A DNA stretch of 64,000 nt from Candidatus Sungiibacteriota bacterium (GTDB lineage: Bacteria > Patescibacteriota > Minisyncoccia > Sungbacterales > HO2-52-23), in assembly GCA_016181585.1 (NCBI GenBank), contig JACOYX010000015.1, positions 8,152-72,151 on the forward strand. Direction: 5' to 3'. Both the position numbers and the translations under genes were made by a program. Shown here piece after piece: positions 261-63,400 of this stretch. The notes beneath the pieces are model-generated. The model was not told where the DNA came from, ran no database searches, and saw only the letters and a program-made list of their open reading frames with translations. Numbering within the stretch: position 1 is the first letter of the stretch; each line of letters opens with the position of its first letter.

Positions 261-1418
261 ATGATAGAATTTAGGATTCTCAAACAATCGAAAAAAAGCG
301 GGGCGCGTATAGGTATTTTGAAAACTACCCATGGGGAAATAGAAACACCTTCTTTGGTGCCGGTGGCGACGCGCGCCGCCATAAAAACGCTGACAGCCCG
401 CGAAACAGAGCGCACCAAGTCGCGGATTTTAATCGCGAATACATTTCATCTGCACTTGCGCCCGGGCGAACATATCATAAAGCACGCGGGAGGTCTGCAT
501 CCGTTTATGCGTTGGAATCATCCTTTGATGACGGATTCCGGCGGTTTCCAAGTATTTAGCCTTGGGTTTGGGAAGGATATGGGCGTGGGGAAACTGTTAA
601 AAATTTTCCCCGAGGGAAACGGCGGAAAAAATAAAGAAACAGTGCGGACGCATCACCAGCCGAAGGAGATGAAAATTGCCGATGAAGGGGTTTGGTTTCG
701 CTCTCCTATAGACGGCAGGAAACTTTTTTTAGGTCCCAAGGAATCAATAAAGATACAGGAGTCGCTTGGTGCGGATATTATGTTCGCCTTCGATGAGTGC
801 ACGCCGCCCTTGGCGACGCGTCCGTACATTGAGCGTTCGCTTGCACGGACGCATGCGTGGGCAAAAATTTGTTTGGATGCGCAGAAAACAAAGCAAGCGC
901 TTTTCGGTATTGTGCAGGGATCGCATTTTAAAGATTTGCGCGAGAAAAGCGCAAAATTTATCGGGGGGCTGGGATTTCCGGGATTCGGTATCGGCGGAGA
1001 TTTAGGGTCAAGCAAGGAAGATATGCTCAAGATTCTCGATTGGACAATGCCTCATCTTGCAGAAGAGAAGCCTCGGCATCTTTTGGGCATCGGCTATCTT
1101 CAGGATATGGAAGCTATTATCAAAACAGGCATAGATCTATTTGATTGTACGGTGCCGACCCACTATGCACGACGCGGCATCGCGTTTACCGCTTTGGGAA
1201 AACTCAATCTGAATCGAACTTTTTTTTTGAAAGACAAAAAACCTCTCGATAAAAAATGCAGTTGCGAGACATGCGCGGAATATACGCGTGACTATATATG
1301 CCATCTCATGCGCGCGGGAGAAATTACAGCAATGCGGCTTTTAACATTTCACAATCTTTTTTATTTCAATACGTTTGTTGAAGGAATAAGGGATAAAATA
1401 AAAAGAGGGAAAATATGA
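261..1418 (+). CDS. tgt: tRNA-guanine transglycosylase (queuine tRNA-ribosyltransferase)
   Basis: ORF track 234..1418 (TTG); first ATG at 261 gives MIEFRIL. Catalytic DSGGFQV, GIGYLQDM and Zn site CSCETC...H are typical of bacterial Tgt. Confidence 0.93.
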   Translation: MIEFRILKQSKKSGARIGILKTTHGEIETPSLVPVATRAAIKTLTARETERTKSRILIANTFHLHLRPGEHIIKHAGGLHPFMRWNHPLMTDSGGFQVFSLGFGKDMGVGKLLKIFPEGNGGKNKETVRTHHQPKEMKIADEGVWFRSPIDGRKLFLGPKESIKIQESLGADIMFAFDECTPPLATRPYIERSLARTHAWAKICLDAQKTKQALFGIVQGSHFKDLREKSAKFIGGLGFPGFGIGGDLGSSKEDMLKILDWTMPHLAEEKPRHLLGIGYLQDMEAIIKTGIDLFDCTVPTHYARRGIAFTALGKLNLNRTFFLKDKKPLDKKCSCETCAEYTRDYICHLMRAGEITAMRLLTFHNLFYFNTFVEGIRDKIKRGKI

Positions 1419-2116
1419 AACTTCATCGTTTTTTCATGCCGTTCAATTATGCTGATGCAGAAGTTGCGCTTCATTTTGCGGATCTGGCGCACCAGTTGCA
1501 AAAAGTATTTCGCTTAGGCAATGGAGACCGTTTGGTTTTGTGCGACGGGATGCGAAACGAGGTAGTGGCGGAAATCACCGAATTGGGAAAAGAGACGGTG
1601 CGGGCAGACATTATCGAGCGGACAGTCAATAATAATGAGCCGTTAATTTCCGCGGCGCTTTATTTGGCAATTTTAAAGCGGGAAAATTTTGAGCTTGCAG
1701 TGCAAAAAGCGGTTGAAGTCGGCATAGCCGAGATTATACCGCTCACCACACAAAGGACGGTGAAATCCGGATTGAATATCGAACGTTTGCAGAAAATCGC
1801 CAAAGAGGCGGCGGAGCAGTCGGGAAGAGGGATTGTCCCGCAAGTGAAAAATATTTGCACATTTGAATCAGCGGTGCGTTCCGCGGCAAAGCAGGGCAGT
1901 GTGATTCTGTTTGACTCGAGCGGCGATGCAATAAAGAGAGCAGTACGCAAATACGCGCATAGTGTAGGTATTTTTATTGGCCCGGAAGGAGGATTTGCTG
2001 AGGAAGAGGTTTTGCTCGCGAAGCAAAATAATTTTTCTATCGCAAGTTTGGGCAAGCTTACGCTTCGCGCCGAAACAGCGGCGGCGGTGGCTTCATATTT
2101 GATAGTGCAAGGATAG
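1415..2116 (+). CDS. rsmE: 16S rRNA m3U1498 methyltransferase RsmE
   Basis: MKLHRFF N-terminus, C-terminal IGPEGGF SPOUT motif; ATGA overlap with tgt. Confidence 0.85.
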   Translation: MKLHRFFMPFNYADAEVALHFADLAHQLQKVFRLGNGDRLVLCDGMRNEVVAEITELGKETVRADIIERTVNNNEPLISAALYLAILKRENFELAVQKAVEVGIAEIIPLTTQRTVKSGLNIERLQKIAKEAAEQSGRGIVPQVKNICTFESAVRSAAKQGSVILFDSSGDAIKRAVRKYAHSVGIFIGPEGGFAEEEVLLAKQNNFSIASLGKLTLRAETAAAVASYLIVQG

Positions 2117-2711: not shown

Positions 2712-3032
2712 ATGATTTCTTTTGAGGAATTTCAAAAAATAGAACTTCGTGTGGCAAAAATTATTGCGGCGGATCGCGTGGAAAGTTCCGAAAAATTGCT
2801 AAAATTAAAAGTGAGTTTTGGCAATGAAGAACGCCAAGTTGTTGCGGGCATAGGAAAAGCGTACGACCCCGAAAAACTTCTCGGAAGAGAGATTGTGGTC
2901 GTTGCAAATCTTGAGCCGCGTGTGCTTATGGGGCAGGAAAGCCAAGGTATGCTCCTTGCCGCCTCTGATGAAAATGGTCCGGTGCTTCTTATTCCAGACC
3001 ATGAAGTGCCGCCCGGGGCAAAGATAAAATAA
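2712..3032 (+). CDS. tRNA-binding domain protein (CsaA / EMAP-II-like OB fold)
   Basis: FQKIELRVAKII...KLLKLKVSFG...VVAGI...VVVANLEPRVLMG.ESQGMLLAA pattern of CsaA/MetRS C-terminal domain. Confidence 0.8.
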   Translation: MISFEEFQKIELRVAKIIAADRVESSEKLLKLKVSFGNEERQVVAGIGKAYDPEKLLGREIVVVANLEPRVLMGQESQGMLLAASDENGPVLLIPDHEVPPGAKIK

Positions 3033-3051
3033 TGCGCGTATTATTAAAATT

Positions 3052-3125
3052 AAAATAAGGCAAATATCCGCGATCGCGGATATTTGCCTTATTTTAATAA
3101 TAAATCTCCGATTTCTCGGAGATTT
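3052..3125. terminator. bidirectional terminator pair between convergent genes
   Basis: 44-nt perfect palindrome AAAATAAGGCAAATATCCGCGATCGCGGATATTTGCCTTATTTT, plus AAATCTCCGA-TTTC-TCGGAGATTT. Confidence 0.8.
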
Positions 3126-3129
3126 ATGG

Positions 3130-4164
3130 TTATTTTTCAATACAAGTGTTATAAAATTCCTTTATTTTTTCCCGAAGGGATCCGCTATTCTCCATCTCTT
3201 CGATAAATTTTTCCGGAATTATCGATATGCCGTGAAGCGCTCCGAGGAGGGATCCTGTAATTGCGGCGTTTGAATCGGTGTCGCCGCCCATACGGATGCA
3301 GTCCGCGATACAGTCGAAATTTTGCGGATTTCGCAGAAAAGCGGCGTATGAGGTGCCAAGCGAATTTATGGCGGAAAAAGCCGCTTTGGTGCCTCCTCCG
3401 AAACGCATGCTGATCTGGCGCGGCGTTTCGCGTGCAAGCGAGCCGTTTTCTTTCATGGCTGAAAGCAGTGCGATTTGCCGGTAAATGGGCGTTTCGGGTG
3501 AAAGGTATTGCTCAGTAAAAATAGCGTAGGCGCTTATATTCTCCAGAAAATCATTGGGGAGTTCATGGCTCGTCTGTCGGGCAAGAAAATAAACTGCATA
3601 GGCATGAACGCATCCGGCCGCGACGGCGGCAAAAGAACGGTGGGTCATGCGGGCGTAGTCTATGCACTCCTTCAGAAATCTCAAGCGGATAAATTCTTCC
3701 GGCGCTTTTGCGCACATGCTTTCCCGAAGTCCCATGGGCGAGATTTTCATCATAATGCCGTTTCCCTCGCCATGCGGTTCCCCGGATTTTGTCCAATGTG
3801 CTTCTTCTAAAAGCCTTTGGCAGGAATTTCTGGTGGACTTCCCCCATCCACGGCCGGCACTTACTTTGTATGCATCAACGTGTTTTCTCGCGAGTATCTC
3901 CATGTCGAATTTTCCGTTGGATTCAATTAGGCTTTCCATGGTAACAAGGGTGAGCTGGGTATCGTCGCTCCACGATCCTTTTGATTTGCCCACGACATCG
4001 GGAAACGGATGGGGGTTGATGGAGGGGCAAAAATATCCGTCAAGCGTGTAGCCGACCAATTCAAGTATCTCGATTTCATCCGGTGTCATGGTTTCAAACG
4101 GAACACCGAACGCATCGCATACGCCGATTGCCATAATGCATCCCATAAATTTATCAAGGTTCAT
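3130..4164 (-). CDS. ADP-ribosylglycohydrolase family protein
   Basis: C-terminal GGDTDSNAAITGSLLGALHG and N-terminal GVCDAFGVPFE motifs of the DraG/ARH family. Confidence 0.85.
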   Translation of the reverse strand: MNLDKFMGCIMAIGVCDAFGVPFETMTPDEIEILELVGYTLDGYFCPSINPHPFPDVVGKSKGSWSDDTQLTLVTMESLIESNGKFDMEILARKHVDAYKVSAGRGWGKSTRNSCQRLLEEAHWTKSGEPHGEGNGIMMKISPMGLRESMCAKAPEEFIRLRFLKECIDYARMTHRSFAAVAAGCVHAYAVYFLARQTSHELPNDFLENISAYAIFTEQYLSPETPIYRQIALLSAMKENGSLARETPRQISMRFGGGTKAAFSAINSLGTSYAAFLRNPQNFDCIADCIRMGGDTDSNAAITGSLLGALHGISIIPEKFIEEMENSGSLREKIKEFYNTCIEK

Positions 4165-54085: not shown

Positions 54086-54264
54086 TAAAATTAAAAAATC
54101 AAAATGAAAAATGACAATGTAAAATGAAAAATTGACTGCTCTTTGGTCATCCTGAAGGAGCGAAGTGACTTAGGGATACTCTTTAATACAATGAGATCCT
54201 TACGCTAGCTCAGGATGACACTTCGCATCAATTTTCCATTTTTATATTTCATTTTTAATTTATC
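54086..54264. repeat. F2 element between atpB and atpE
   Basis: Arms TTAAAAAATCAAAATGAAAAATGACAATGTAAAATGAAAAATTGA / TCAATTTTCCATTTTTATATTTCATTTTTAATTT. Core inverted repeat GTCATCCTGAAGGAGCG... / ...GCTAGCTCAGGATGAC. Confidence 0.7.
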
Positions 54265-55462: not shown

Positions 55463-55612
55463 TAGACCTGCTGCTTAATTATTTTCATCGCGAAATTTTC
55501 ATATTTTGAGCGAGTGTTGCAAAAATTTTGAAGCATATATAAGCGGTATATGTTGAGAAATTTTTGCAAAGCCACAGCCAAAATATGAAGATTGCAGTAG
55601 AAAAATAATTAA
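55463..55612. repeat. F1 composite element, 150 bp, between atpH and atpA
   Basis: TAGACCTGCTGCTTAATTATTTTC ... GCAGTAGAAAAATAATTAA. Inner arms ATTTTCATATTTTG / GCCAAAATATGAAGAT and GTTGCAAAAATTTT / GAAATTTTTGCAAAG. Confidence 0.8.
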
Positions 55613-55639
55613 ATTAAAGCGGAAAAAATCGGCCGTGTT

Positions 55640-57088
55640 TTGGAGGTTGGCGACGGTATCGCGAAAATTTACGGGCTTGCCGGTGCGGCTTCGCAGGAAA
55701 TGCTTTCGTTTGAAACGTCGGCCGGAGAAGTGATCGGCATTGCCTTCAATCTTGAAGAGGATTTTGTGGGAGCGGTGATTGTGGGCGATTATTCGCGCAT
55801 CAAAGAAGGGGATTTGGTAAAACCAACAGGAAAAGTGCTTTCGGTACCGGTGGGTGACGAGCTTATCGGCCGCGTACTGGATCCTTTGGGCAATCCGCAG
55901 GATGGCAAGGGTCCGGTTTTCAGCGGCAAAAAAGTGCTGGAATTATTCCCTGTGGAGCGTATGGCGCCTTCGGTTACCGCCCGCGAATCGGTTAATACGC
56001 CATTGCACACCGGCATAAAAGCGATAGACAGCATGATCCCCATCGGCCGCGGACAGCGCGAGCTTATTATCGGCGACCGGCAAATCGGCAAAACTTCCAT
56101 TGCGGTTGATACGATTATCAACCAAGGTCGCGACAAACGGTACCGCACTCCTATCTGCATTTACGCGGCGATCGGCCAAAAGGAGTCAAAAGTCGCAAAA
56201 ATAGTACAGACACTTAAAGAGCAGGGAGCGCTCGAATATACAATAGTAGTTTCAGCTCCCGCCTCAATGCCTGCCTCTCTTTGGTATTTAGCTCCCTATA
56301 CCGCTTGCGCCATTGGAGAGTATTTTATGCAAAAAGGGCAGGATGCGCTGGTAATTTATGACGATTTGTCCAAGCATGCATGGGCGTATCGCGAACTTTC
56401 TCTGCTCCTGCGCCGCCCGCCGGGCCGTGAAGCGTATCCAGGAGATATTTTTTATCTTCATTCGCGGCTTCTTGAGCGCGCGGCGAAGTTGAACAAAGAG
56501 CTTGGCGGAGGATCGCTTACGGCGCTTCCGATCATCGAGACGCAGTTGGGCGATGTGTCGGCATATATTCCCACCAACGTCATTTCCATTACCGATGGGC
56601 AGATTTATCTTGAGCCCGAACTTTTTTACAAAGGGACTCGCCCTGCGGTGAATGCGGGACTTTCGGTATCGCGCGTGGGTTCTGCAGCGCAGACGAAAGC
56701 CATGAAAAAAGTAGCCGGAAAACTGCGCCTTGAACTTGCGCAGTTCCGAGAACTTGCGGCGTTTGCGCAATTCGCTTCCGAACTCGACGAGTCAACGCGA
56801 AAGCGCCTTGTCCGCGGGCAGGTTTTGACAGAGCTTTTAAAGCAACCTGAACTTGGGCCTCTGCCGTTTGAAAAGCAAGTTGCAGTTATTTTTGCAGGAA
56901 CACAAGGATATTTTGATGCGATAGAAATTTCTCTTGTCTCGCGCCGAGCCGCTCTTTTGACGGAGTATCTCGAAAAAATGCACCGCGAAGCTATTTTGGA
57001 TGCGATCCGCGAATCGGGCGAATTGACGAAAGAAATCGAGGAAAAATTGCGTGCGGCGATCGAAGAATTTAATACTATAGAGCATTAG
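55640..57088 (+). CDS. atpA: F-type ATP synthase subunit alpha, N-terminally short
   Basis: TTG 55640 ([13 protein letters not shown]). The frame is open only back to the stop at 55610 (possible ATT 55613: IKAEKIGRV). Walker [10 protein letters not shown]. About 20-25 canonical N-terminal residues are absent. Confidence 0.93.
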
Positions 57089-57123: not shown

Positions 57124-58044
57124 ATGCAATCCACCCGCGACATAAAAAAACGCATTCGGTCAGTGAAAAATATCTCGCAAATTACCAAAGCGATGGAGGT
57201 TGTTTCTGCGACAAAAATGCGTAAATCACAAGAGTTTGCGATCCGCGCGCGTCCGTTCGCTACCGCCTCGCTTGAACTTTTAAATAATTTACTTCTGCGT
57301 ACCGAGACACTTCCGCCGTTTCTTATTCCCCGTCCGGTGAAAAAAACTGCAGTGCTTGTCGTAACTTCCGACAAGGGACTTGCGGGGGCATTTAATGCCA
57401 ATGTTTTGCGGAAAGCCGAAGCGCATATCGCTGGAATAAATATCCCTTACACTCTTGTAACGGTTGGGAAAAAAGCACGCGATCATTTCTTTCTTCGCAA
57501 TATCTCCATTGATAGAAGTTTTTGGGGATTTGGCGACTACACTAAAATTCAGGATACCCTGCCGGTTGCCGATTATCTTCTGAACGGATTTTCAAGCGTG
57601 GCGTGGGACGAGCTCTATGCGGTGTATACCAATTTCCGCTCGACATTGCGGCAGGAAACGGTAGTAAAAAAAATCCTCCCTGCAACGCGGGAGGGGCTTG
57701 AAGATGCGGTACGTGGAATTTTGCCGGAGCGCGGACGGTTTGCCGAGGGCGTATCGGGGGAGTCAAAATTTGCGGCGGGCTACAACTTCGAGTATGCCTT
57801 TGAACCTTCATCTGCTGAAATTCTTGAATCGCTTATTCCGCAGATTCTTCGCATGCACCTGCATCATATTATTCTTGAATCGAACGCGTCGGAACATTCG
57901 GCGCGAATGGTGGCAATGAAAAATGCTTCGGAGAGCGCCGGAGAGCTTATCACCGATCTTTCGCTGGTATACAACAAAACGCGCCAAGCGGGGATTACGC
58001 GGGAGCTCACGGAGATTACGGCAGGATCAACGTCAACTGCTTGA
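57124..58044 (+). CDS. atpG: F-type ATP synthase subunit gamma
   Basis: I..VKNISQITKAMEVVSATKMRK and C-terminal ITRELTEI. Confidence 0.9.
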   Translation: MQSTRDIKKRIRSVKNISQITKAMEVVSATKMRKSQEFAIRARPFATASLELLNNLLLRTETLPPFLIPRPVKKTAVLVVTSDKGLAGAFNANVLRKAEAHIAGINIPYTLVTVGKKARDHFFLRNISIDRSFWGFGDYTKIQDTLPVADYLLNGFSSVAWDELYAVYTNFRSTLRQETVVKKILPATREGLEDAVRGILPERGRFAEGVSGESKFAAGYNFEYAFEPSSAEILESLIPQILRMHLHHIILESNASEHSARMVAMKNASESAGELITDLSLVYNKTRQAGITRELTEITAGSTSTA

Positions 58045-58130
58045 CGTTGACGGGAGATTTTGGCGTCCCCGCGAGTCGTTAAAAATCGCCCAGGGCTTCG
58101 CCGAGGGAGCGAAGATAGGCACTGGGGAAA

Positions 58131-58149
58131 TAGACCGATCCTAATAAAA
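58131..58149. repeat. F1 solo left end
   Basis: TAGACCGATCCTAATAAAA versus TAGATCCGTCCCCTAATAAC. Confidence 0.45.
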
Positions 58150-58193
58150 TATGCCGGAGAGATTCCGACATATGAGTGCTTTTAGACGATTTT

Positions 58194-58274
58194 TTAAGGA
58201 ACTTGATTATTGCGGCAGGTGTTCCAAGCGACCCAAACGGCAAATGCTACAATTACAGCTAATGGTCCGAACAT
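58194..58274 (-). CDS. sORF-3, 26-aa hydrophobic peptide
   Basis: Own translation: AGGGGG-N5-ATG. The SD overlaps the last codons of sORF-2 and the ATG is 2 nt after its stop. MFGPLAVIVAFAVWVAWNTCRNNQVP*. Confidence 0.5.
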   Translation of the reverse strand: MFGPLAVIVAFAVWVAWNTCRNNQVP

Positions 58275-58276
58275 GG

Positions 58277-58354
58277 TTACCCCCTTATAAGTATATAAAT
58301 AATGGCAACTGTAGCCAAAGCACCGACGACGTATCGAATAGTCTCTCCGTCCAT
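58277..58354 (-). CDS. sORF-2, 25-aa hydrophobic peptide
   Basis: Own translation: TAAGGAG-N8-ATG; MDGETIRYVVGALATVAIIYILIRG*. Starts 20 nt after the sORF-1 stop. Confidence 0.5.
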   Translation of the reverse strand: MDGETIRYVVGALATVAIIYILIRG

Positions 58355-58374
58355 TTTCACTTCTCCTTAATTTC

Positions 58375-58446
58375 TTATAGGTTAAGCAATTTATATATCA
58401 CAACTCCACAAAGAACAACAAGCCCTACCAAAAGTAATGACATCAT
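58375..58446 (-). CDS. sORF-1, 23-aa hydrophobic peptide
   Basis: Own translation: AAGGAG-N11-ATGATG; MMSLLLVGLVVLCGVVIYKLLNL*. Single predicted TM helix. Confidence 0.4.
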   Translation of the reverse strand: MMSLLLVGLVVLCGVVIYKLLNL

Positions 58447-58448
58447 AA

Positions 58449-59879
<1,431 letters not shown>

Positions 59880-60856: not shown

Positions 60857-62107
60857 TTATTTTTTTATCACTCTGCGCGGCGGCGGATGGATTAAAAAAG
60901 ATTTTGCGTGCTCGTGCAAACGCTCGAGCCATGCAAGCGGTGTTCCTCCCGTGCCGTGGGTGTCGCCAAATTCTTTAATATAGTCGCTGGCAAGAGAGAA
61001 ATGCTCCGCACGCCAATCCACTACGAACTGCGCAAGCGCGTTGTAACTCCGGACTAGCCGGGGATTTTTTTTACCGTAGAGATCAACAAACGAGCGGATA
61101 TTCCAGTGTGCAAGCGTGCTCTCTACCAGCGCGCGGTGATGGCCGGACATATACAGCCTCATTTCCGGAAAATATGGAATATGCGCAGGATACATTCCCA
61201 AAAGGGAAAGGATGGTGTGCATGAATGGTGTCTGTCCTCCGGTTTCCCCATAAAAACTCTTAGGCGTCTCACTTACTCCCTCAAACACTACATTTTTTGG
61301 AAAAATATAGAATTTACGGACACTATCGAAGTATGTGCGATAGTCACACTGCTCGCGCATGCGTTTGAATATCGCAAGAGTTGTTTCAAGCGCAATCACC
61401 GCATCCTGCATTTTCACGATAACAACATCTGTCGCCTCTTTTTTATGATCAATCAGTTCAATGAAGTGCGCGGCAATAAGCAAGTCGGTTAAGGCTGGCG
61501 CCACGGTTTTCTCGATCACCTGGTGAATATTTACAAACCACTCCTCGTCTCTGGTGCCCGTGAACGAGTGTACGAGCTTGATGTTTTTAAGCGAAATCTT
61601 TTTTGTTTTGTCGGGAATGTCGTAGTTATAAAGAGAATACAGCATATAGGAAAATGATGGAACGGTTTTTATCTCTTGCGCAACCAACCATAACGGCTTT
61701 GCAAGTTTTGCAGGTAGTATTTTTATTGAGGAATCTTTTTGCACTTCGCCCGCCGTTTCATATTCCAGTGTTTCATTGAAATATGAATGAGTCAGGATTC
61801 CCAGCATGTGCATAAGCCAATATTGCTGGCGCGTGCTAATATACCTAAAAAAGTAATAGTTCGAGATGGGTGGAAGATGCGCCAGCGTTTCTGTAATGCG
61901 TTTTTCCCGAATAAGATTCGGCAGATTGTCTGTTGCGGTTTGCAACGCTTCAAAGTATTCGGTATATAGATTGTTGAAATTCTCCATTGGAGACAATGTA
62001 AGTACTGGATTTTCAGCTAAAAAACCGAATTCCGGTGATGCATAATGCGTTTCAAGCAATGCACGAACTTGTATATTCGCCGTATCAAGCGCTTTACTGG
62101 AGTTCAT
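60857..62107 (-). CDS. indoleamine 2,3-dioxygenase (IDO/PrnB)-family haem protein
   Basis: ETGGQTPFMHTILSLLGM, FPEMRLYMSGHHRALV, WRAEHFSLASDYI...THGTGGT (proximal His region) match IDO signatures. Confidence 0.75.
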   Translation of the reverse strand: MNSSKALDTANIQVRALLETHYASPEFGFLAENPVLTLSPMENFNNLYTEYFEALQTATDNLPNLIREKRITETLAHLPPISNYYFFRYISTRQQYWLMHMLGILTHSYFNETLEYETAGEVQKDSSIKILPAKLAKPLWLVAQEIKTVPSFSYMLYSLYNYDIPDKTKKISLKNIKLVHSFTGTRDEEWFVNIHQVIEKTVAPALTDLLIAAHFIELIDHKKEATDVVIVKMQDAVIALETTLAIFKRMREQCDYRTYFDSVRKFYIFPKNVVFEGVSETPKSFYGETGGQTPFMHTILSLLGMYPAHIPYFPEMRLYMSGHHRALVESTLAHWNIRSFVDLYGKKNPRLVRSYNALAQFVVDWRAEHFSLASDYIKEFGDTHGTGGTPLAWLERLHEHAKSFLIHPPPRRVIKK

Positions 62108-62198: not shown

Positions 62199-62316
62199 GG
62201 ATCTCCTGCCAAATACCATTTCTCCTGCAAATGATGAATTTCTGCCAAAATAGCTTCAAAACTTTTTGGCTTATCTTCCAGATAGACCTCAAGGTTTTGG
62301 TATTTGGCAGGAGACC
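62199..62316. repeat. F1b element copy B, 118 bp with intact terminal inverted repeats
   Basis: GGATCTCCTGCCAAATACCA ... TGGTATTTGGCAGGAGACC. Lies between the IDO-like and dinB starts. Confidence 0.85.
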
Positions 62317-62323
62317 CATAATC

Positions 62324-63400
62324 ATGAAAATTATCGGACATCTTGATATGGACGCATTTTTCGCTTCAGTAGAGGAACGGGATCATGAATTTCTCCGCGG
62401 CTTTCCCATTGTTGTCGGCGCCGACCCAGATGAAGGGAGAGGAAGGGGGGTGGTTTCGACGGCAAATTATAAAGCGCGCAAATTCGGCATCCATTCCGCC
62501 ATGCCGATCAGTAAAGCGTGGCGGCTTGCGGAAGATGCACGAAAACGCGGTGAAGAAAAAACAATGTTTCTTGTGCCATACTTTTTACGGTATCGAGAAT
62601 CATCCGCGAAAGTATTTTCCATTTTGCGCGCGTATGCGCCGCACATAGAAGAGGCGAGCGTGGATGAGGCGTATTTCGATATCAGTTTTGCAGGATCATA
62701 TGAACAAGCGGAAATAATTTGCCTGAATATAAAAAATGAAATTCGGGAGAAAGAAAAATTAACCGCGTCAATCGGTGTCGGCCCCAATAAATTAATTGCT
62801 AAAATCGCTTCCGACCGGCAAAAGCCCGACGGTCTTACTGTGGTAGAGGAAAGCGAGGCAGAGGAATTTTTGGCGCCTCTTTCGATTCGCGTAATTCCTG
62901 GCATTGGTCCCAAAACCGAGCTTCTTTTGAATGCACAAGGAGTGAAATATATCGCGGATTTAAAACACTATTCGAAAGATAAACTTCAAACAATGCTCGG
63001 CAAAGGGGGGCTTGTATTATATGAGAAGATCAGAGGCCGGGGAAGCGCGGTTATTCAAGAAAAACCGAACATAGCTAAATCGGTAGGGGAGCAGGAAACA
63101 TTCAGCCGCGACACACTCGATTCGGTATTTATTCTCGAACGGCTTCAGGATTTATCGCGCACGGTGCTTTCTCGATTTCGGCAGGAAGGCTTTTTGGTAT
63201 TCAGTACCGTAACTATCACTGTGCGTTTCGCAAATTTTAAAACAGTTACGCGTGCGCATACGCTCGCAAAATCTGCTGAAACCGCAGAAGTTTTATATTT
63301 TGAAGCGCTTAAATTGCTTATGCCGTTTTTGGACAGCCGCGAAAATCCGAAGAAAAAGTTGATACGTTTGGTGGGAGTAAGAGTGGAAAAATTGGGGTAG
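62324..63400 (+). CDS. dinB: DNA polymerase IV (Y-family)
   Basis: ORF from 62231 runs through a repeat; ATG 62324 gives MKIIGHLDMDAFFASVE. SIGVGPNKLIAKIASD. Confidence 0.93.
   Translation: MKIIGHLDMDAFFASVEERDHEFLRGFPIVVGADPDEGRGRGVVSTANYKARKFGIHSAMPISKAWRLAEDARKRGEEKTMFLVPYFLRYRESSAKVFSILRAYAPHIEEASVDEAYFDISFAGSYEQAEIICLNIKNEIREKEKLTASIGVGPNKLIAKIASDRQKPDGLTVVEESEAEEFLAPLSIRVIPGIGPKTELLLNAQGVKYIADLKHYSKDKLQTMLGKGGLVLYEKIRGRGSAVIQEKPNIAKSVGEQETFSRDTLDSVFILERLQDLSRTVLSRFRQEGFLVFSTVTITVRFANFKTVTRAHTLAKSAETAEVLYFEALKLLMPFLDSRENPKKKLIRLVGVRVEKLG

Follow-up and report, generated by a model that had tools for sequence, protein, structure and literature searches.

A predicted antisense operon for three membrane microproteins in the atpG-atpD spacer of a Candidatus Sungiibacteriota bacterium

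Bacteria of the Candidate Phyla Radiation (CPR), or Patescibacteria, have tiny genomes, and about half of their genes are without known function. The present analysis concerns a stretch of 64,000 nucleotides (64 kb) from Candidatus Sungiibacteriota bacterium (GenBank assembly GCA_016181585.1, contig JACOYX010000015.1, positions 8,152 to 72,151), referred to below as the window. In its ATP synthase (atp) operon, the spacer between atpG and atpD carries three small hydrophobic open reading frames (ORFs), named s1, s2, and s3, on the opposite strand. Parts of this arrangement are known from described systems. The gene order of small accessory subunits is exemplified by CydX in cydABX, KdpF in kdpFABC, PetN/PetG, and the psbEFLJ operon of photosystem II (PSII). 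Excludon or cis-antisense arrangements with convergent transcription have been described in Listeria. Small membrane proteins that serve as accessory subunits of energy-transducing complexes form a general class (PMC12648545). The type I toxin IbsA, of 19 amino acids (aa), was reported to bind the Fo subunits a and b and to block proton translocation (bioRxiv 10.1101/2025.05.26.656083).

The three ORFs share several features with the type I toxins (Ibs/Sib, Ldr/Rdl, Fst, TisB, ShoB, and AapA1), which are 19-35 aa long, consist of about one transmembrane (TM) helix and a short polar tail, and are missed by gene callers. The genes of these toxins are also covered by an antisense transcript, which would be expected here, from the sequence alone, through atp read-through. 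However, the window peptides have no homology to the toxins and no dedicated antitoxin promoter, and their mRNA is predicted to be unstructured, with exposed and strong Shine-Dalgarno (SD) sequences. Moreover, three unrelated peptides are carried by one mRNA, and the only candidate antisense partner is the read-through transcript of a housekeeping operon. The accessory subunits (CydX, KdpF, PetN/PetG, psbEFLJ) are likewise single-pass and shorter than 50 aa, and are encoded beside the genes of membrane complexes, sometimes several in one small operon. Whereas their genes are co-oriented, co-transcribed, and widely conserved, the unit in the window is antisense, is found in a narrow clade only, varies in content, and can be dispensed with. 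As in an excludon, a transcript would be both an mRNA and an antisense RNA to the neighbouring unit, which predicts mutually exclusive expression. The minus strand has a predicted promoter and terminator, no terminator was found on the plus strand between atpG and atpD, and the sequence leads one to expect overlapping opposed transcripts; but the predicted transcript covers only an intergenic part of the atp mRNA and no coding region. AtpTheta (atpT), a cyanobacterial small inhibitor of FoF1, is another small protein tied to ATP synthase regulation (PMC12648545), but it is amphipathic, has no TM helix, is encoded outside the atp operon, and is not similar to s1-s3 in sequence. Finally, a 73-aa member of the CBU_0592 family (NCBIfam NF047864, PF26604) fills the s1/s2 slot, downstream of an s3 homologue, in the antisense unit of one relative; this family is multi-helix, and no window peptide is significantly similar to it.

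The atpG-atpD spacer is probably (about 0.6 by our estimate) an autonomous minus-strand operon, consisting of a sigma-70-type promoter, three SD-led ORFs, and a terminator, which would encode three single-pass membrane microproteins. The predicted elements are as follows, in the order of transcription.

58513-58518, minus strand: -35 hexamer TTGACA, the reverse complement of atpD bases 2-7 (ATG TCA AGA)
58489-58494, minus strand: -10 hexamer TATATT, from the consensus scan
58463-58458, minus strand: SD sequence of s1, AAGGAG, 11 nt from the ATG
58446-58375, minus strand: s1, 23 aa, MMSLLLVGLVVLCGVVIYKLLNL, ATG start, one TM-like helix, family F1
58369-58363, minus strand: SD sequence of s2, TAAGGAG, 8 nt from the ATG
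58354-58277, minus strand: s2, 25 aa, MDGETIRYVVGALATVAIIYILIRG, ATG start, one TM-like helix, family F2
58285-58280, minus strand: SD sequence of s3, AGGGGG, 5 nt from the ATG, overlapping the last two sense codons of s2
58274-58194, minus strand: s3, 26 aa, MFGPLAVIVAFAVWVAWNTCRNNQVP, ATG start, a TM-like helix followed by a polar, basic tail, family F3
58139-58173, minus strand: intrinsic terminator from the terminator scan, hairpin ATATGTCGGAATCTCTCCGGCATAT then TTTTATTAGGA (hairpin at 58173-58149, then TTTTATT)

An earlier note on this DNA had described three antisense small ORFs in the spacer, each with its own SD sequence, and all of the coordinates and sequences were found to be correct. 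The overlap of the s3 SD sequence with the end of s2, and the position of the s3 ATG 2 nt past the s2 stop, were also as described. Each peptide was said to be essentially one TM helix, and the hydropathy agrees: a TM-like stretch dominates each of them, the best 15-aa hydropathy is 2.3-3.0, and a basic residue directly follows each helix. The same note had called the three ORFs translationally coupled. This description suits s2 and s3, but not s1 and s2, which lie 20 nt apart. An alternative GTG start at 58470 would extend s1 to 31 aa. The three ORFs have the features by which small membrane-protein genes are recognized, namely a length of at most 50 aa, a start codon, a ribosome-binding site, and a TM helix. 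SD sequences are scarce among the larger genes of the window, as had been noted before: they were found at the first ATG of 3 of 51 large ORFs, or of at most 16 of 51 by a generous rule, and none of the six atp genes with an inspected start region (atpB, F, H, G, D, and C) has a clear one. Because their SD sequences are strong in a genome that rarely uses them, we infer that the s1-s3 peptides are translated efficiently. The peptides probably insert into the cytoplasmic membrane with an N-out/C-in orientation, since each has a basic residue just past the helix (positive-inside rule).

A census was made of all ATG-initiated ORFs of 18-45 aa on both strands of the window (128 kb of sequence), with a TM-like stretch defined as 15 aa with a mean hydropathy of at least 2.0. 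There were 565 such ORFs, including 31 with an SD-like motif and 23 with a TM-like stretch. If the two properties were independent, about 1.3 ORFs per 128 kb would be expected to have both. Only three of the 565 ORFs combine them, and these are s1, s2, and s3, on one strand and within 253 nt. Such a cluster is not due to chance, and the census supports the previous remark that three good SD sequences in a row are unlikely to arise by chance. The ORFs might nevertheless be regarded as chance products of a functionless T-rich spacer, the remnant of an old insertion, as T-rich DNA readily gives hydrophobic ORFs and the atpG-atpD junction is a hot spot for inserts. This explanation is very unlikely indeed: the combination of a promoter, three SD-ATG ORFs, and a terminator is unique in the window, and the arrangement recurs in four diverged genomes with related peptides. 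A plus-strand ORF of 112 aa (58151-58489) was also considered as a gene of the spacer and rejected; it is not preserved in any relative and is absent from the protein collection searched.

Relatives were collected by using atpG in one genome scan and one metagenome scan, which gave 160 loci. The closer relatives L162, L164, L165, and L166 came from a protein search and exact look-ups, and L082 from the atpG metagenome scan. Percentages given for relatives are atpG identities to the window (L081, identical; L162, 86%; L164, 80%; L165, 74%; L166, 73%; L082, 72%). Over the 136 loci having both genes, the atpG-atpD spacer has a median length of 34 nt, and it reaches at least 300 nt in 20 loci; in the nearest GTDB species (62-63%), it is 13-17 nt long. 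The spacers of L162, L164, L165, and L082 are 270-400 nt long and contain minus-strand small hydrophobic ORFs, followed by a hairpin and T-tract by the atpG end. All of these peptide ORFs have an SD-type motif, mostly AAGGAGG or GGGGG, with weaker forms in L164 (GGGAG and AAGGAA). The gene order is s1-s2-s3 in the window, s1-s3-s2 in L162, F2-s3 in L164, and F2-s1 in L082; the unit of L165 consists of an s3-like ORF and the 73-aa CBU_0592-family membrane protein, all on the minus strand. The test of conservation and synteny proposed in the earlier note was thus passed, with related peptide families found antisense at the atpG-atpD junction of four relatives (72-86%). The only other copy of the window unit is in L081, where the spacer is 100% identical, and an exact look-up of atpD gave no further contigs. 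None of the sampled relatives at 68% or below has the unit. At 66-68%, the junction is empty or has unrelated plus-strand inserts (GIY-YIG, a nucleoside deoxyribosyltransferase, or a 176-aa protein).

This distribution bears on the possibility that the peptides serve the F-type ATP synthase, or a different membrane complex, as accessory or regulatory micro-subunits encoded beside their target genes. The unit lies inside the atp operon, and its junction is constant in five genomes. Small single-TM subunits are well established (CydX, PetN, and the small subunits of PSII), and AtpTheta is a small regulator of ATP synthase (PMC12648545). Small membrane-protein ORFs are also found, on either strand, in the atpG-atpD spacer of other CPR loci (L028, L033, L036, L037, L042, and L088). 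However, the opposite orientation means no co-transcription with atp, and the unit is absent from L166 and from all sampled relatives at 68% or below. Neither co-transcription nor co-occurrence with atp across the lineage, as expected of an ATP synthase accessory subunit, was found. The shuffled content and fast divergence are unlike those of a subunit with a fixed binding interface, and the same junction also hosts unrelated soluble inserts (GIY-YIG, deoxyribosyltransferase). Insertions of unrelated genes recur in the atp operon, and at this junction across the phylum, and the argument from gene neighbourhood loses force accordingly. A role as micro-subunits is therefore distinctly unlikely.

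Further genes were seen in atp junctions of relatives. Unrelated genes lie at 2942-3196 and 1707-1919(-) in L169, at 2192-2467, 3440-3850, and 294-518(-) in L171, and at 1791-2321 in L167. In the Sungbacteria junctions, the inserts comprise stand-alone GIY-YIG proteins, a nucleoside deoxyribosyltransferase, a protein of 176 aa, and soluble ORFs of 70-74 aa in antisense orientation. In distant CPR loci, atpG-atpD spacer ORFs resemble four-helix-bundle proteins, and in Chloroflexi loci ORFs resemble HAD hydrolases; both likenesses were judged by eye, with no family search.

The predicted promoter, TTGACA-18-TATATT at 58518-58489 (-), matches 11 of 12 consensus positions; neither it nor the terminator is mentioned in the earlier note. 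The transcript would be about 340 nt long, with a 5' untranslated region (UTR) of about 20-35 nt, and the whole unit measures about 380 nt with promoter and terminator. TTGACA on the atpD start is also found in L162, L082, and L165, with a -10 element at 16-17 nt and 10-12 of 12 matches. In L164, TTGACA is kept on the atpD start, but the promoter match is only a weaker alternative. Promoters of this kind, matching 10-12 of 12 positions, are thus present in four of the five genomes, the window included. Minus-strand hairpin and T-tract terminators beside the atpG end were flagged by the scan in L162 and L164; similar hairpins in L082 and L165 were read by eye and were not flagged. Among 142 related loci, atpD begins with ATGTCAA in seven, six of which have long spacers. 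The seven are the four loci with small-ORF units together with L166, L085, and L088. The ATGTCAA/TTGACA motif tracks antisense units at the atpG-atpD junction, and L166 shows that it can occur without one.

Two of these loci have features of their own. In L088 (56%), a hydrophobic antisense ORF of 44 aa, MDSKYVWLGVSSVGIATAAIMGVYLTQSAYCLWALVLIPIVWGR, lies at 2860-2990 (-) and has two hydrophobic stretches by eye. It has its own terminator and a promoter whose TTGACA lies on the atpD start, and the exact protein is found on 14 public contigs (P0121). In L085, where atpD starts with ATGTCAA, the 284-nt spacer contains a long inverted repeat (GCGAGGAGCAGCGGCGACGAAGCAATCTC...GAGATTGCTTCGCTACGCTCGC) at 4030-4100 (-) and no clear small-ORF unit.

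The relation of the unit to atp transcription depends on its flanks.

57124-58044, plus strand: atpG (F1 gamma), PF00231, convergent with the small-ORF unit
58045-58138, no strand: GC-richer spacer segment of about 95 nt, between the atpG stop and the terminator of the unit
58512-59879, plus strand: atpD (F1 beta), Pfam-confirmed, divergent from the small-ORF unit, without an SD sequence, leader AT-rich

The unit had been said to split atpBEFHAG from atpDC with convergent transcription. This is so geometrically, but the unit is convergent only with atpG and is divergent from atpD. A split into two separate atp operons is not supported: no plus-strand terminator after atpG was found by scan in the window or in the four relatives carrying the unit, and consensus scans found no convincing plus-strand promoter for atpD in the five genomes. 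For these reasons, atp read-through across the unit is more likely than two separate atp operons. By scan, the terminator of the unit acts on the minus strand only. Transcription of atp would then probably read through the unit, and the small-ORF mRNA would be complementary over its full length to the resulting RNA. The small-ORF promoter would sit on the atpD start and leader, and expression of the unit would probably be anticorrelated with that of atp. Promoter occlusion, polymerase collision, and RNA duplex formation are each possible routes.

Homology of the peptides was tested by comparing global alignment scores with composition-preserving shuffles. The blastn search with the spacer and the tblastn search with s1-s3, against 161 related loci, matched only the identical Logan contig L081, and the homologues in diverged relatives were found only by reading the syntenic spacers. 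The window peptides match their best homologues with shuffle z values of 4.2-6.3. In family F1, s1 is similar to MTEAQAVLAAGVLVLFIFTFYKLLTW of L162 (z 4.2, p 5e-4); MAVLAAGCIVLSLYIVHYLIKNW of L082 joins the family mainly via L162 (z 5.8), and it matches s1 itself only weakly (z 2.3, p 0.023). In family F2, s2 is similar to MESDALVRIAGVIAFVAVFISLRN of L162 (z 4.5, p 3e-4). The L164/L082 pair MEDLLFFLGVAAIILALGWAFK and MEAFLYLLGLAAVIVALGWALKD (ME..LGxAA..ALGWAxK peptides) has a z of 9 to each other, and its link to s2 is weak and suggestive. In family F3, s3 is similar to MLGPLLMIVFFVTIVFVSEYRNSS of L165 (z 6.3), (M/V)LGIIIVIGFFAAMAAIANYRNTETEKSDED of L162 (z 4.7), and MLGILIVVVLFCVPIFISEYRSRNRSK of L164 (z 4.6); the N-terminal M-x-G motif and the [EN]-[YT]-[RC]-[NS] motif after the helix are kept across genomes. 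A leave-one-out hidden Markov model (HMM) of the s3 family placed the window s3 at the top of the non-training sequences among 39,561 six-frame fragments (E 0.047). Conservation across species, which is expected of small membrane proteins, is therefore present, and it is weaker for s1 and s2 than for s3. The rest of the window and roughly 1 Mb of related loci yielded no further copies of the three families. The idea that s1-s3 are pieces of a split CBU_0592-like or L088-like gene was rejected (shuffle z at most 1.5).

Differences between homologues fall 50, 38, and 67 times at codon positions 1, 2, and 3, respectively (five independent homologue pairs, chi-square p 0.016), and raw pN is 0.42 versus a pS of 0.59 over all 11 homologue pairs. 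As read from these alignments, this is how coding sequence under weak constraint behaves when its hydrophobicity, which the second codon position determines, is kept. Alternatively, the functional product might be the antisense RNA or its transcription, which would tune atpD-atpC against atpB-G, while the ORFs merely keep the RNA ribosome-covered and stable, their peptide sequences being incidental. The promoter on the atpD start codon and leader, the transcription head-on to atp, the weak constraint on the peptides, and the variable content within a kept promoter/terminator frame are consistent with this proposal. However, it is improbable, given that family-specific motifs are retained across genomes (M-x-G, and [EN]-[YT]-[RC]-[NS] in F3), that the second codon position is the most conserved, and that a strong SD sequence is maintained for every peptide ORF despite the scarcity of such sequences in the genome.

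Several observations weigh against a microprotein operon. The 11 nt between the SD sequence and the ATG of s1 are close to the upper limit of usual spacings. The leave-one-out HMM fails to recover s1 and s2, whose homology is given by the shuffle tests and synteny. Peptide identity is about 30-40% where atpG is 86% identical, and the raw pN/pS is only about 0.7. The unit occurs in only five distinct genomes, four of which are short Logan or metagenome contigs, and L166 (73%) has an 8-nt spacer and no unit, which shows that the unit is dispensable. As unrelated inserts occur at the atpG-atpD junction in other Sungbacteria, the location may only reflect a permissive site. In L162, the s2-like ORF (1450-1148, minus strand) has no in-frame stop ahead of the terminator, and its reading frame would continue into atpG in antisense orientation; a sequencing error, decay of the gene, and a true extension are all conceivable. 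Since the unit is lost in L166, its content is shuffled, and its sequences diverge fast, the peptides would be non-essential, fast-evolving accessory membrane factors and not core ATP synthase subunits.

The earlier note had likened the locus to small-membrane-protein or type I toxin loci. The first likeness agrees with the conservation of the peptides and with their being missed by gene callers, which point to real small-membrane-protein genes; the toxin label is not supported, as defining features are lacking. A type I toxin-like module would encode membrane-depolarising or Fo-inhibiting peptides, with the atp read-through mRNA or an undetected plus-strand small RNA as cis-antisense antitoxin. 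At 23-26 aa and a hydropathy of 2.3-3.0, s1-s3 are small (<60 aa) hydrophobic peptides with one TM helix, and their size, single helix, and polar or charged C-terminal tails fit type I toxins (PMC12648545). IbsA offers a precedent for Fo inhibition (bioRxiv 10.1101/2025.05.26.656083), a full antisense partner is expected with no plus-strand terminator ahead of the unit, and the patchy, shuffled distribution resembles that of accessory or selfish modules. Nevertheless, no toxin-family match was found in Pfam, NCBIfam, or PADLOC. Consensus scans found no plus-strand promoter within the unit of the window, and none is conserved across the relatives that might serve a dedicated antitoxin. Nor does the predicted fold sequester the SD sequence as in such toxins: the small-ORF mRNA is not unusually structured (z -0.11), most of the s1 SD sequence stays unpaired in the centroid, and the 5' UTR is short, where such toxin mRNAs usually have a long one. 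A polycistronic mRNA that carries three different peptides, each behind a strong SD sequence, also differs from the known loci, which are tandem monocistronic toxin/antitoxin pairs. A toxin-like module is therefore unlikely. In a more specific and speculative form, of low probability, the unit would be a polycistronic type-I-like module whose 'antitoxin' is the atp read-through mRNA. Promoter occlusion and RNA duplexing would silence the peptides while atp is transcribed, and the antisense promoter would have arisen from the start of atpD (ATGTCAA, which reads TTGACAT on the opposite strand). When atp transcription falls, the three peptides would be made and would depolarise the membrane or block Fo, as reported for IbsA, and so lock the ultra-small symbiont into a state of low energy.

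To return to the microprotein operon, searches of sequence collections showed that its products belong to no described family. Neither the peptides nor their homologues match a family in Pfam, NCBIfam, PADLOC, or PHROG, and none is at or near threshold in the first three. The peptides and homologues are absent from a collection of 15 billion proteins, in line with the earlier statement that the ORFs are below gene-caller cutoffs. The GTG-extended s1 of 31 aa has no match at E <=1e-3 among 1.84 billion representatives. Rfam gave nothing credible, either for the whole window at the gathering threshold or for the spacer at E up to 10. A phage or plasmid origin was rejected, with no tblastn match in phages, only noise (E of about 4) in plasmids, and no PHROG match; a mobile-element origin was rejected, as there are no flanking repeats. 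In the literature, no report was found of antisense small ORFs in atp operons or of type I toxins in CPR bacteria. These are new microprotein families in an unusual nested antisense arrangement, and the genes were never called as far as the searched collections show.

The atp genes are arranged on the plus strand in the order atpB, atpE, atpF, atpH, atpA, atpG, atpD, and atpC. The atpG product is a 100% match to an NCBI protein named ATP synthase F1 subunit gamma from Candidatus Sungbacteria. The atpD product is identical to MBI2056153.1 (455 aa, Candidatus Sungbacteria), and its start position agrees with the NCBI record. The NCBI proteins are encoded on a contig of 72,969 bp, and the genome that contains the window is metagenome-assembled. 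The length of 467 nt previously given for the atpG-atpD spacer was confirmed (atpG end 58044, atpD start 58512). The other atp junctions, put at 35-180 nt, are indeed shorter, but their measured range is from an overlap to about 188 nt. The GC-richer segment after the atpG stop has no counterpart in L162, and it contains a second terminator-like site at 58105-58089 (-). A perfect 10-bp hairpin (TCAACGTCAA/TTGACGTTGA, 4-nt loop) spans the atpG stop codon at 58027-58050; it encodes an atypical atpG C-terminus, GSTSTA, and with no T-tract after it, it is no obvious terminator. An imperfect hairpin element of 82 nt (GGTCATCCTGAAGGAGCGAAGTGAC...GCTCAGGATGACACTTCGC) lies at 54145-54226 in the 188-nt atpB-atpE spacer; the window has a single copy, which may resemble repeat elements of other genomes. 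The 5' end of atpA (55585-55640) appears disrupted, with MKIAVEK, a stop, and frame changes within A-runs, and the N-terminus of the relatives differs. The longest atpA ORF begins at a TTG (55640) and is about 25 N-terminal residues short; an assembly error in a homopolymer, a non-canonical start, or a truncated gene could each explain this. The gene immediately past the atp operon, at 60857-62107 (-), encodes a 416-aa member of the indoleamine 2,3-dioxygenase family (PF01231, E 1e-45) and is followed by a DinB/IMS-type polymerase at 62231-63400. An indoleamine 2,3-dioxygenase family gene seems unusual for a CPR bacterium.

In summary, sequence and comparative analyses suggest that a conserved and probably well-translated microprotein operon, skipped by gene callers, can lie hidden within even the best-annotated operon of a CPR bacterium. 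The locus illustrates the recruitment of an adjacent gene's first codons for a promoter, and the shuffling, gain, and loss of small TM-peptide genes over short evolutionary distances. It is compact and cloneable, and could be used to probe the role of small membrane peptides in the energy conservation of a symbiont, as well as cross-regulation between a housekeeping operon and a nested antisense unit. Its importance would rise sharply if atp read-through were indeed an antisense switch for Fo-directed or depolarising peptides.

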